This document shows positions 6,347-10,087 of a stretch of DNA of 12,259 nucleotides, piece after piece (within the stretch, counting starts at the first letter, position 1; the number at the start of each line of letters is the position of its first letter). This DNA comes from an uncultured archaeon (GTDB lineage: Archaea > Asgardarchaeota > Lokiarchaeia > Sigyniarchaeales > SOKP01). The notes beneath the pieces were generated by a model. That model was given only the letters and a program-made list of their open reading frames with translations, had not been told where the DNA came from and did no database searches. A program made the position numbers and the translations under genes. The stretch spans positions 1-12,259 of the forward strand of contig CAZGJX010000112.1 in the NCBI GenBank assembly GCA_964525635.1, written 5' to 3'.

Positions 6347-9300
6347 TTGATGATGATAAAAACCTATAAAAATAGCTTTTATATAGTTTTAGTAATATTA
6401 AGTCTTACTGTTTCAAGTCTTAATTTTATAAAGCTAATACCTATTTCAAATACAATAAAAGAAGGAACACAATCAGTTGCTCCTAAAGAAAGTATCTTAG
6501 AATCAAATAAAGTTGTCTATGGATTTTGGCCATACTGGATGGATCCTTCATCATATCAACCAAATTGGAATGCATTAACTCATGTTGCTTATTTTTCCTG
6601 GGGGGCTAATAGTGATGGATCATTAACTCCACCAGATGTTGCGCGATTTAATACTGTAAAAAATCTTGCCCAACAAAATGATGCTAAATTAACAATTTGT
6701 ATTACTTGTTTTAGTCAAGATACACAAGATAACATTTTAGCATACCATAAGACTGATTTTAGTACAAATATTCTAAATCTTCTACAAACTTATGGAGTAG
6801 ATGGTATTAATTTAGATTTTGAATTTCCCAGAACTACCAACTCATATACAGGTGAATCTAATACAATTTTATTTGAGAATTTGATGAGTATTCTTCATAC
6901 TACTCTGAAAAATGCTAATATTAATTACCATCTTTCATTTTGCATTGCTGGTAGTGTTGAGTCGATATATCGTAATGAAGGATTATCTCAATATATTGAT
7001 GCTATATTTCTTATGGGATATGATTATCATTGGAGGTCTGCATCAACAACAGGTGCTGTTTCTCCCTATGATGATCCTACACAGTTGGATGTTGTTGATT
7101 CTGTAAATAGGCTAATCGCTTATTATCCAAGTGATAAAATTATTCTTGGTTTTCCTTTTTATGGATATGATTGGCCATGTTCATCAGAACAACCAGGAGC
7201 TTCAGTAATAGAAAGCGGAAGTAGTGTTCTTTTAAAAGATGCAATTTTAAATGCTCAATCTTATGGACGACTTTGGGATTCAAACTCTAATACACCATGG
7301 TATCGTTATCAAAGTGGATCAACTTGGCATCAATGTTGGTATGATGATGAAATCTCTTTAGATATTAAATTTGATTATGTTAATTCTGCTAATCTAGCAG
7401 GAACGGGATTTTGGGCTCTTGGTTATGAGACTTCAGATATTTGGAACTTAGTTTTAACAAAATTCTCTGATTCTCAAAATTCACTAAATGGTTTATCAGG
7501 GAAGATTATTTGTGTGGATGCAGGACATGGTGGTTCTGATAGCGGAACGGTTGGAATTGATGGTTCAGGATACCCTAATGAAAAGGATTTTAATCTCGAT
7601 ACCGCTTTACGTTTAAAAGATCTACTAATATCTGCTAGTGCAACTGTTATAATGACTAGAGAAACAGATGTATTTATTTCACTTTCAGAACGGTGTACTA
7701 TAGCAAACAATAATAATGCAGATATTTTTGTCAGCGTACATCATAATGCAGCATCATCAACAAGTGCAAGAGGTACTGAAACGCTCTATTGGGCTGAAAG
7801 TGATACAATATATTCTGTAAACGGCAGGAGTTTAGCAAGCAATATTCAATCAAGATTGGTTGCACAACTTGGAACAACTAATCGAGGAATAAAAGGAGAT
7901 TATCCATATCTTGGATATCATTTATATGTGTTAGCAAACACAGATATGCCTGCTGCTTTAACTGAAAATGCCTTCCTCTCTAATCAAGATGATTTCAATT
8001 TAATAAATAATCCTGATAATCGATATAAAGCAGCATTAGGTATCTATGAAGGCATATGCAATTATTTTGGTGTTGACCCTGAACCACCTCCACCTGATGA
8101 GGATATAACAGATAAAACAATTATTATAGATCCAGGGGATGGGGGTTCTGAAAGTGGTCCAGTCGGGATTGATGGGGAAGGCTTTCCAAATGAAAAAGAT
8201 TTCAATCTTGACGTTAGTTTAAGATTAAAAGATATGTTATCTTATATAGGTGCAAATGTGATTTTAACTAGAGAAACAGATATTGATGTTTCACTTTCAG
8301 AACGGTGTAATATAGCAAATATTAATAATGCAGATATCTTTGTTAGCATACATCATAATGCTGCTTCATCATCAAGTGCGGGAGGTACTGAAACATTCTA
8401 TTGGGCAGAAAGTGATATTGTATATTCTATAAACGGTAGGAATTTAGCAGGCGATATACAATCGCGATTGATTTCACAACTTGGAACAACTGATCGAGGA
8501 ATACGAGGAGATTATCCATATCTAGGGAGTCATTTTGAAGTACTTGACAACACAAATATGCCTGCAATTTTAACTGAAATTCTATTTCTTACAAATCAGG
8601 ATGATTTTAATCTAATTTCCGATCCTAATAGCCGAATTAGGGCGGCTTTAGCGATTTATGAGGGGATTTGTAATTATTTTGGTGCTGATCCTCAAATACC
8701 CCAAGCAAGTGATATAACAATTTCAGGATACCCATCATCTTCCTCATATATTTCTAGAACTATATTTTTTGAAAAATCTTTTTCAAACACTCTATTTATG
8801 ACAAGAGCTTCCTTGTATTTGGATGAAAGTTATATTGAAGATTTTTATTTTAAAGAGTGGTTTTTTAATACAGAATCAACTATTAGTCAACCTATATTGA
8901 ATAGTTATGACTATTCTATTGGATGGCATAATATTAAAATTATAACTCAAGATCTATGGGGAATAGAGAAGAATCATGAAGAAGAGCTCTTTTTTCAACG
9001 TTCTCCTATAGTAGGAGCAAAAATATATGGAAGTTCTGATGCAGCTAATATAGCAGATAATGATGATGAATCTTATGGATCTAATGATTTGAACAAACCA
9101 TTATATATTGAATTACCATGTAATTTTAATATATGGGCGATAAAAACACATTGGTGGGATAATGATAATAGATATTATCAGTATAAAATTGAAACATCAA
9201 CAGATAATGAAACTTGGGTATTACAAATCGATAAAACATTAGGTGAATATAAATCTTGGCAGTGGGATGCTATTGATTCTGATATAAGATGGATCAGGAT

Positions 9301-10087
9301 TATAGGAATCCATAATAGTGAGAATGAATGGTGGCATCTAAAAGAAATCCATTTATTTACACCTCTACCACAACAATTCCGTGTATTTGGAGAAATATTA
9401 AATTCTCCCTTTGTCATTATTGAGAATTTATCGAATGAACAAGTAGCAAACATAACAGTTATAGATGATTATTATATATTTGACTTATCAAATCTTAATT
9501 TTATTTATGGAGATGAGATCTGTGTAAGTGTTCCTGGAGAAAATTGTACTTTTATTGTCACAGATCCATATACAAGTAAAAAAATAGATTTAGGATCACT
9601 AATAGATGATAAATCTAAATCAGATAATTTTGACCCTATTTTTATCAGTATAACTATAGGTCTTTTAGGATTTATATCTCTTGTAACAATAGTCTATTTG
9701 AGAAAAAAAGCTCATGCAAATAAAAATAGATTAAAAGATAAAAATATGGAAGCTCCAAACCATAATTCTTCTAATAATTTAATAAATAATTTATCTTCAA
9801 AATCTCCTACACATACTAATTTAACTTCAAATAATCAATATGATTATAATTCCAATCAATATAATAACCCAGATTATTCAAATCAAGCATATAGGGGAGA
9901 AAATCATATAGAAAATTCTGGAGGGTACAATTCTGATTATTTATTTAAGATACAAGGATGTCCCAGATGTGGTGCTGGGGAAAATTATATTGAAGAAATA
10001 TTAGATAAGAATTATGTAGAAAGTTATTATCCTGAAATAATTTATGCTAAAAAGAGAATTTGCAGAAATTGTGGATTTGAAGATTAG
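6347..10087 (+). CDS. Multidomain membrane-anchored putative peptidoglycan hydrolase: GH18 + 2x N-acetylmuramoyl-L-alanine amidase (Amidase_3) + Ig-like + F5/8 type C + TM + zinc ribbon
   Basis: N-terminal hydrophobic segment (aa ~11-25). GH18 ~6506-7460 (DGINLDFE, MGYDY, LGFPFYGYDW, WYDD, FWALG). Amidase_3 at 7502-8071 (DAGHGG, E412, SVHHNA, PAALTE) and 8114-8683. Ig-like ~8708-9000; discoidin ~9005-9358; beta-rich ~9368-9592; TM 9638-9700 followed by RKK; CPRC...CRNC at the C-terminus. The true start may be ATG 6350 or 6353. Confidence 0.9.
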   Translation: MMMIKTYKNSFYIVLVILSLTVSSLNFIKLIPISNTIKEGTQSVAPKESILESNKVVYGFWPYWMDPSSYQPNWNALTHVAYFSWGANSDGSLTPPDVARFNTVKNLAQQNDAKLTICITCFSQDTQDNILAYHKTDFSTNILNLLQTYGVDGINLDFEFPRTTNSYTGESNTILFENLMSILHTTLKNANINYHLSFCIAGSVESIYRNEGLSQYIDAIFLMGYDYHWRSASTTGAVSPYDDPTQLDVVDSVNRLIAYYPSDKIILGFPFYGYDWPCSSEQPGASVIESGSSVLLKDAILNAQSYGRLWDSNSNTPWYRYQSGSTWHQCWYDDEISLDIKFDYVNSANLAGTGFWALGYETSDIWNLVLTKFSDSQNSLNGLSGKIICVDAGHGGSDSGTVGIDGSGYPNEKDFNLDTALRLKDLLISASATVIMTRETDVFISLSERCTIANNNNADIFVSVHHNAASSTSARGTETLYWAESDTIYSVNGRSLASNIQSRLVAQLGTTNRGIKGDYPYLGYHLYVLANTDMPAALTENAFLSNQDDFNLINNPDNRYKAALGIYEGICNYFGVDPEPPPPDEDITDKTIIIDPGDGGSESGPVGIDGEGFPNEKDFNLDVSLRLKDMLSYIGANVILTRETDIDVSLSERCNIANINNADIFVSIHHNAASSSSAGGTETFYWAESDIVYSINGRNLAGDIQSRLISQLGTTDRGIRGDYPYLGSHFEVLDNTNMPAILTEILFLTNQDDFNLISDPNSRIRAALAIYEGICNYFGADPQIPQASDITISGYPSSSSYISRTIFFEKSFSNTLFMTRASLYLDESYIEDFYFKEWFFNTESTISQPILNSYDYSIGWHNIKIITQDLWGIEKNHEEELFFQRSPIVGAKIYGSSDAANIADNDDESYGSNDLNKPLYIELPCNFNIWAIKTHWWDNDNRYYQYKIETSTDNETWVLQIDKTLGEYKSWQWDAIDSDIRWIRIIGIHNSENEWWHLKEIHLFTPLPQQFRVFGEILNSPFVIIENLSNEQVANITVIDDYYIFDLSNLNFIYGDEICVSVPGENCTFIVTDPYTSKKIDLGSLIDDKSKSDNFDPIFISITIGLLGFISLVTIVYLRKKAHANKNRLKDKNMEAPNHNSSNNLINNLSSKSPTHTNLTSNNQYDYNSNQYNNPDYSNQAYRGENHIENSGGYNSDYLFKIQGCPRCGAGENYIEEILDKNYVESYYPEIIYAKKRICRNCGFED
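7502..8683 (+). repeat. Intragenic tandem duplication of the Amidase_3 domain (units 7502-8071 and 8114-8683)
   Basis: Two 190-aa units, colinear without indels at a constant 612-nt offset, with about 137/190 (~72%) identical residues by manual alignment. DNA similarity is visible (e.g. TTCACTTTCAGAACGGTGTA and TCACAACTTGGAACAACT-like blocks). The units are joined by the linker VDPEPPPPDEDITD. Confidence 0.95.

Follow-up and report, generated by a model that had tools for sequence, protein, structure and literature searches.

A membrane-tethered GH18-amidase surface protein of a Lokiarchaeia-type archaeon as a candidate hydrolase of bacterial peptidoglycan

The stretch of DNA analysed here (the window) is an entire contig of 12,259 bp (C112) from the genome of an uncultured Asgard archaeon. 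An open reading frame (ORF) on its forward strand, at 6347..10087, encodes 1246 aa and is the sole long frame at that place. Its product is a type-I membrane protein of the cell surface, which comprises a signal peptide, a GH18 glycosidase, two Amidase_3 domains, a three-domain stalk, a transmembrane (TM) helix and a cytoplasmic tail (Table 1). Judged from its domains and catalytic residues, this protein probably hydrolyses bacterial peptidoglycan at the surface of the Lokiarchaeia-type cell. Physical dealings between Asgard archaea and bacteria are central to models of eukaryote origin, and molecular candidates for them are very few. The gene described here is a concrete candidate, coding for a surface-tethered, two-enzyme head that appears to be aimed at a polymer found only in bacteria, and it is native to a Lokiarchaeon.

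Domain layout and membrane topology

Table 1. Features of the protein encoded at 6347..10087, neighbouring genes of the window and further carriers of the zinc ribbon (positions refer to the window; aa, residues of the protein).
Feature	Position	Strand	Basis
Signal peptide or signal anchor, aa 1-27	6347..6427	+	Lys-rich n-region, hydrophobic core aa 10-24; translation, hydropathy
GH18, aa 62-360, motif DGINLDFE, catalytic E159	6530..7426	+	Pfam E 8e-36
Amidase_3 domain 1 (amidase-1), aa 386-576, zinc site H394/E412/H465, catalytic E540	7502..8074	+	Pfam, PDB matches, NCBIfam CwlD, residues
Amidase_3 domain 2 (amidase-2), aa 590-780, D598/E616/H669/E744	8114..8686	+	Key-column table, domain tree, identities
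Stalk domain 1, Ig-like beta sandwich, ~aa 800-885	8744..9001	+	AlphaFold model
CBM32/discoidin-like module, ~aa 890-1005	9014..9361	+	Foldseek vs PDB, weak Pfam F5_F8_type_C
Stalk domain 3, membrane-proximal Ig-like beta sandwich, ~aa 1010-1080	9374..9586	+	AlphaFold model
Single TM helix, aa 1097-1118, then RKK 1119-1121	9635..9700	+	Hydropathy maximum 2.56
Cytoplasmic low-complexity linker, Asn/Ser/Tyr-rich, aa 1119-1195	9701..9931	+	Composition
C-terminal Cys4 zinc ribbon, aa 1196-1246, CPRC...CRNC, plus stop	9932..10087	+	Hidden Markov model, alignment A3, model
MacB/FtsX-type ABC pair	1285-4425	+	
Heliorhodopsin gene	10195-11040	-	Pfam E 5e-89
257-aa type-I surface protein	11272-12045	-	
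Nine other zinc-ribbon carriers of the host genome: contigs C200, C1, C218 (two), C5, C2, C143, C66, C7	Loci L009, L016, L011, L012, L017, L014, L015		

The options for the start codon are TTG at 6347 and ATG at 6350 or 6353, and the database record of the protein (P0002, 1244 aa) begins at 6353. Hydropathy analysis revealed two hydrophobic stretches, at aa 10-34 and approximately 1097-1118. The N-terminal signal is presumably cleaved, and the C-terminal TM anchor is kept in homologues. The tail behind this anchor is 128 aa long, with CPRC at 1205-1208 and CRNC at 1239-1242, and a linker similar to that of the tail is also found in a paralogue from a sister genus (P0005).

The stalk was modelled with AlphaFold over aa 781-1096 (11 homologues, pLDDT 82), and three beta-sandwich domains were obtained. 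The middle one matched CBM32 modules in a Foldseek search against the PDB (E 7e-8 to 1e-6, TM-score by target 0.65-0.81), and in the model it adopts the discoidin jelly-roll fold of this family. The Pfam score for F5_F8_type_C at aa 898-1000 was 19-21 bits, which is under the cut-off of 28.2; the precomputed Pfam lists of homologues include PF00754, which supports the CBM32 assignment, and, in the case of P0007 and P0008, PF13620, which supports stalk domain 3.

A preliminary description of this DNA had proposed the same domain layout, and Pfam, hydropathy, residue reading and the AlphaFold model all agree with it. The two residues it had singled out, E159 and E540, are indeed the catalytic Glu of GH18 and that of amidase-1, respectively. 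It had also held that no LysM, SH3b or peptidoglycan-binding domain is evident. The Pfam search detected no LysM, SH3, PG_binding, SPOR or similar domain in the protein; however, a CBM32-like module is present, and amidase-2 is orthologous to an apparently dead domain that is kept in relatives.

The catalytic domains and their archaeal family

Amidase_3 (PF01520) was detected in two copies with 333 bits against a cut-off of 27 (E 5.7e-100). Amidase-1 keeps all four catalytic residues, that is, the three zinc ligands and the catalytic Glu. The preliminary description was right in counting two such domains, but it had missed that D598 of amidase-2 replaces the first zinc-ligand His, so that three of the four residues are canonical there. 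Amidase-1 aligned over its full length with CwlV (1jwq), Cwp6 (5j72) and CwlD, and with AmiA/B/C over the first half only, which suggests that the autoinhibitory insert of AmiA/B/C is absent. The NCBIfam CwlD model gave 219 bits summed over both copies, slightly below its cut-off.

In the amidase tree, the GH18-linked archaeal amidases form one clade, with a duplication inside the Promethearchaeota branch. Copy 1 (aa 386-576 of the window protein, aa 55-245 of P0005) retains the pattern H-E-H...E, and amidase-1 shares 68% identity with the intact domain of P0005. Copy 2 (aa 590-780) clusters with the D/N-E-Q...Y domains of P0004, P0005 and L019, which are 80-91% identical to each other. In sister Promethearchaeota (L008:7154-12754; L018:5905-11505; L019:83-2701), the stalk-proximal amidase retains neither of the two His ligands, and its catalytic Glu is gone as well. 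These copy-2 domains look like catalytically dead pseudo-enzymes retained for binding, and amidase-2 of the window protein is probably a weakened or binding module. The long retention of a dead amidase fold beside an active GH18 suggests a binding role for the fold and one substrate for both enzymes, and it thereby argues for a common peptidoglycan target.

The GH18 domain (PF00704) scored 124.7 bits against a cut-off of 29.6, and both D157 and E159 of the catalytic Asp-x-Glu are present. In place of the classical chitinase motif DxxDxDxE (DGxDxDWE), it has Asn for the middle Asp and Phe for Trp, and in the motif survey DG[VI][NSC][IL]DFE was found throughout the subfamily, with Asn, Ser or Cys at the middle position. 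The best single-domain PDB match was SleL (4s3j; 76.6 bits, query 3-302, covering the entire domain), and YaaH came next. The corresponding motif of SleL is RDIHFDFE, in which the middle Asp is replaced by His, and the LysM domains of SleL are missing from the window protein. The highest total PDB score belonged to the two-domain chitinase ChiW, and a full chitinase insertion domain is present in the GH18. On balance, the SleL-like match together with the lost middle Asp points to the glycan of peptidoglycan as a somewhat likelier substrate than chitin or another N-acetylglucosamine (GlcNAc) glycan.

In the GH18 tree, the window protein forms a group with two Promethearchaeota (support 100). 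This group lies within a largely archaeal clade, which holds 20 archaeal rows (the window row counted apart), 7 of Dehalococcoidia and 1 of Caldiserica; many GH18s of this clade have no amidase partner. The clade (L024-L042) spans Thermococcus, Desulfurococcales, Bathyarchaeota, ANME-1, Methanoperedens, Aenigmatarchaeota and Thermoplasmata, with the Dehalococcoidia nested inside, and its GH18s are often joined to CARDB, peptidase or transglutaminase domains rather than to an amidase.

A protein search and a survey of species-representative genomes recovered the same ectodomain plan in other archaea, namely signal peptide, GH18, Amidase_3, beta sandwich, discoidin, Ig-like domain and C-terminal TM helix. 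These relatives belong to two other Promethearchaeota species, about eight Thermoplasmata and one Saliniplasma. The observed architecture is beyond chance, because the family recurs in these other archaeal genomes with 43-60% identity. The Thermoplasmata and Promethearchaeota relatives (P0004-P0011), recorded just as 'N-acetylmuramoyl-L-alanine amidase', are alike in ectodomain order, C-terminal anchor and GH18 motif. They differ, however, in their length of about 900 aa, in having one amidase domain and in a tail of few cytoplasmic residues, whereas the window protein chains both Loki-specific amidase copies, GH18 and the zinc-ribbon tail. In the sister genus the same set is divided over two tandem genes, P0005 and P0004, one of which encodes amidase, dead amidase, stalk, TM helix and zinc ribbon, and the other GH18, dead amidase, stalk and TM helix. 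The window protein may therefore be seen as retaining the full ancestral Loki arrangement, and by its sequence it belongs to the Asgard branch of a GH18-amidase-CBM32-TM family shared with Thermoplasmata. The statement in the preliminary description that the architecture is not a described system was thus too strong, since the ectodomain family is present in public Thermoplasmata and Promethearchaeota records and archaeal peptidoglycan hydrolases have been published (PMC12352652, PMC4241558). One further Asgard family has an Amidase_3 protein of 1442 aa (G045), which was rejected as a member for its different architecture and its lack of a zinc ribbon.

The substrate can also be read differently. 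The protein could be mainly a degrader of chitin or another GlcNAc polymer, in which the GH18 works and the amidases are lectin-like or accessory. The top rank of chitinases such as ChiW by total PDB score and the full insertion domain are in line with this, as are the GH18s without amidase in Thermococcus, Bathyarchaeota, ANME-1, Methanoperedens and Dehalococcoidia and the two Promethearchaeota relatives that retain GH18 with a dead amidase only; CBM32 modules, moreover, bind diverse sugars. Such a role nevertheless seems unlikely given the complete catalytic set of amidase-1 and its closeness to the intact domain of P0005, a chitinase motif that, like that of the cortex-lytic SleL, lacks its middle Asp, and the fusion with an N-acetylmuramic acid (MurNAc)-L-Ala amidase that is kept across two archaeal phyla. 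In addition, neither MurQ nor NagA nor NagB was above its cut-off in the host genome, so the last two are not available for GlcNAc use; two GH3 genes were found there.

The cytoplasmic zinc ribbon

The C-terminal zinc ribbon is a module of about 45 aa with the consensus CPxCGA..IKE.EDK..IISY.P...YAKK.C.KCG.EF (alignment A3). The tail of the window protein has the full membership pattern, CPxC...x(~26)...CxxC with the conserved I, DK and Y.KK, ending 8-9 residues before the C-terminus, and it was found by the profile, built from the last ~50 residues, in the host genome with E 4.7e-22. Ten host ORFs, the window protein and nine others, end in this module, always at the extreme C-terminus. The carriers include a transglutaminase-like TM surface protein with a long coiled-coil tail, a polyproline-coiled-coil protein, several small coiled coils and a gelsolin-repeat protein. 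The last of these, on contig C143 (L014:1495-2583, +; Pfam E 5.5e-27), has a variant of the ribbon as its terminal part. On C200, two transglutaminase-like surface proteins lie in tandem (L009:83-2422 and L009:2624-3871, both -), one with a long cytoplasmic coiled-coil tail and zinc ribbon and the other with a TM anchor only; this pattern of a tailed and an untailed gene recurs in the hydrolase paralogues P0005 and P0004 of the sister genus (L008, L018).

Outside the host, 491 clusters at E <= 0.001 were found among 1.84 billion representative proteins, nearly always with the module at the C-terminus and mostly in coiled coils, and all named carriers are Lokiarchaeota or Promethearchaeota. The ribbon occurs in 239 of 400 Asgard genomes and in every one of the 134 other genomes of the host family, typically in 5-12 copies, and many other Asgard families have single copies. 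It is not in Pfam, and no description of it was met in the Asgard gelsolin and ESCRT (endosomal sorting complex required for transport) literature examined; papers on Asgard gelsolins call the C-terminal extensions of such proteins 'unknown', with no mention of zinc. The 'domain X' of Thor/Loki gelsolins was considered as a possible equivalent and rejected, since the papers take X for a coiled coil or a disordered stretch and say nothing of zinc. The model of the module (pLDDT 81) has a generic zinc ribbon fold, and Foldseek against the PDB returned only generic ribbons (Rpp21, Rpb9/TFIIS-like), all with E > 0.5. A look-up in a protein atlas gave a best score of 0.84, below the useful range, and a two-copy complex prediction with A3 scored 0.01, which weighs neither way.

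The tail is predicted to be cytoplasmic, because most zinc-ribbon carriers are soluble proteins without signal peptides, and in this respect the preliminary description was supported. Its further suggestion, that the tail of this receptor-shaped protein could relay a signal, was not. Pfam and NCBIfam found nothing in aa 1119-1246, including any kinase, cyclase, helix-turn-helix (HTH) or other signalling output domain, and what the tail does contain is a ribbon shared throughout the lineage. Its wide sharing makes a role in docking or localisation likelier for the ribbon than one in signal output. A sensor whose ectodomain binds peptidoglycan fragments of neighbours and whose zinc-ribbon tail informs the cell would suit the type-I receptor-like topology with a folded cytoplasmic domain, as well as an amidase domain that is weakened here and dead in relatives. 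It is nonetheless improbable, as the tail is devoid of signalling domains, about nine other host proteins, mostly soluble coiled coils, carry the same ribbon, most family members have few cytoplasmic residues past the TM helix, and the active sites of GH18 and amidase-1 are intact.

It is a distinctly speculative idea that the ribbon couples the enzyme to actin-associated machinery of Lokiarchaeia, so that the enzyme, placed on actin-supported protrusions, digests bacteria on contact. If true, this would be a primitive, cytoskeleton-linked extracellular digestion of bacteria in the lineage of archaea that stands nearest to eukaryotes. An acquired tool for cutting walls appears to be wired into the host cell through a ribbon that is also found on cytoskeleton-type proteins. 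The ribbon itself is an undescribed module, a candidate for a docking device common to the cell architecture of Lokiarchaeia, and it may matter more than the hydrolase.

Host, mode of action and known systems

The host is a Lokiarchaeia-type Asgard archaeon from salt-marsh sediment. Its genome of 4.45 Mb, in 245 contigs, is rated 100% complete with 2.98% estimated contamination. No small-subunit rRNA gene was found in it, and the taxonomy rests on named homologues and on four actin homologues (best 443 bits), which bear out the Asgard host that had been suspected from the sequence. Neither SEDS (shape, elongation, division and sporulation) proteins nor a penicillin-binding protein (PBP) transpeptidase were detected in this genome; the control searches for SEDS and for PBP each gave hits in 10 of 14 named control genomes, and these ten are all bacterial. 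Therefore, any MurNAc-L-Ala substrate must be foreign to the host, as the preliminary description had argued for an archaeal one. The same absence of peptidoglycan synthesis genes makes it very improbable that the protein remodels the archaeon's own envelope, for example surface glycoproteins or a wall polymer. Anchoring in the producer's membrane would be consistent with that role, and GH18 enzymes can act on N-glycan cores; however, the GH18 has an insertion domain and belongs to the chitinase/SleL type, not to the endo-beta-N-acetylglucosaminidase (ENGase) type, and Amidase_3, present in 8 of 400 Asgard genomes and in none of three congeners, is distributed unlike a housekeeping function.

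The gene is native to the host. In GC (28.0%) and in tetranucleotide composition the contig does not stand out from the bin, and the GC content at third codon positions (GC3) of the hydrolase gene, 0.149, compares with 0.172+-0.04 for the genome; the gene is thus fully adapted to a very AT-rich host, and recent transfer from a GC-normal donor is ruled out. Three same-genus genomes have 70-78% identical DNA for the ABC (ATP-binding cassette) transporter, a Pyr_redox gene, the heliorhodopsin and a winged-HTH gene, which lie to both sides of the hydrolase ORF, and nothing for 6347-10087. Logan's separate assembly of run SRR9707989 gave the identical gene order, contigs from other salt-marsh runs span both junctions (X4 5756-6754, X3 8946-10273) with no differences and even depth, and the tail module is also borne by genes on contigs of 73-126 kb in the host genome. 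No RNA dataset was among the sequencing runs listed as holding the gene. The orthologous flanks, the bridged junctions, the typical GC3 and the Lokiarchaeial tail thus identify a native gene, as had been assumed at the outset, although with its patchy distribution it is an accessory one, and contamination or chimerism of the contig is very unlikely. That a bacterial gene was misplaced in an archaeal bin, as the short contig (12.3 kb), the 245-contig metagenome-assembled genome with its estimated contamination and a local GC of 33-35% in the catalytic part (genome 26.8%) might suggest, is hardly credible against all of this evidence and against the finding of relatives on a Promethearchaeota contig of 38 kb that also encodes an Arf/Ras GTPase.

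Directly downstream of the hydrolase and convergent with it lies a heliorhodopsin gene with orthologues in all three same-genus genomes. The 257-aa protein that is encoded farther on has a signal peptide and a C-terminal TM helix followed by KRIK; it matched nothing in Pfam, the three same-genus genomes have no matching DNA for it, and with it the contig carries a second accessory surface protein. Upstream, the ABC pair consists of an ATPase and a permease of 833 aa, the latter containing a MacB periplasmic core domain. Its interpretation as an FtsEX-like regulator of the amidase was ruled out, as no such pair accompanies the hydrolase at the loci of relatives.

The stalk would keep the catalytic head at a distance of some 10 nm from the membrane. 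There, the CwlV/CwlD-like amidase-1 would remove stem peptides from MurNAc, and the SleL-like GH18 would next cleave the GlcNAc-beta-1,4-MurNAc bonds of the denuded glycan, with the CBM32 module and the weakened amidase-2 gripping the substrate. Because the enzyme is tethered, its action would be limited to walls or debris touching the cell, and because an outer membrane shields the wall of intact Gram-negative bacteria, the targets would be Gram-positive cells or necromass. The zinc ribbon would most likely position or cluster the enzyme through a common partner rather than relay a signal. With MurQ, NagA and NagB absent and no importer linked, the necromass feeding suggested in the preliminary description is unsupported as far as amino sugars are concerned; the release of peptides or cell contents, the lysis of Gram-positive neighbours or antagonism would fit better than amino-sugar catabolism.

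Several points weigh against the hydrolysis of peptidoglycan. The family is known from sequences alone, and the zinc site of amidase-2 is non-canonical. Nothing in the host genome points to a downstream use of MurNAc or GlcNAc, and the adjoining ABC system is of the MacB export type. Moreover, as the GH18 subfamily is common without an amidase in archaea and Dehalococcoidia, its substrate could be chitin or a GlcNAc glycan.

Among characterised proteins, the closest single domains are those of the Bacillus spore-cortex enzymes SleL/YaaH, a GH18 N-acetylglucosaminidase (4s3j/4s3k), and CwlD, an Amidase_3 enzyme. These are separate bacterial proteins, with LysM domains, and act on the producer's own spore cortex, whereas in the window protein the domains are fused and membrane-tethered in an organism without peptidoglycan. 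The logic of the pairing is that of Staphylococcus aureus Atl, where a MurNAc-L-Ala amidase and an N-acetylglucosaminidase are joined in one polypeptide; Atl, however, combines Amidase_2 with GH73, is secreted and processed, uses GW/SH3b-type repeats for binding and cuts its own wall. The top sequence matches for GH18 (by total score) and for the amidase are Paenibacillus ChiW (5gzu) and Clostridioides difficile Cwp6 (5j72), both of which are multimodular hydrolases displayed on the cell surface, to which they are attached by SLH/CWB2 wall-binding modules. ChiW differs in its canonical DGIDLDWE motif.

Archaeal peptidoglycan hydrolases that kill bacteria have been described, namely the M23 enzymes of Halogranum salarium (Strock et al., 2025; PMC12352652) and the GH25 lysozyme of Aciduliprofundum boonei (Metcalf et al., 2014; PMC4241558). 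The window protein resembles them in bacterial origin, peptidoglycan as the presumed target, a producer without peptidoglycan and patchy distribution. The screen of Strock et al. demanded a catalytic Pfam domain together with a listed cell-wall-binding Pfam domain. The window protein falls outside this definition of a modular hydrolase, as it has no listed wall-binding domain, and neither GH18 nor F5_F8_type_C is present in the supplementary files of that paper, whose S2 table lists Asgard proteins with other architectures. The GH18-amidase-CBM32 family was missed because a classic wall-binding domain was required, and published screens of archaeal peptidoglycan hydrolases thus overlook a whole membrane-anchored family. 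The enzymes of Halogranum and Aciduliprofundum are secreted and soluble, with one catalytic domain and classic wall-binding domains, and none of them has an anchor and a folded cytoplasmic domain. What is new in the window protein, compared with these systems, is that its membrane tether is combined with a cytoplasmic zinc ribbon specific to Lokiarchaeia and that an active amidase is paired with a degenerate one.

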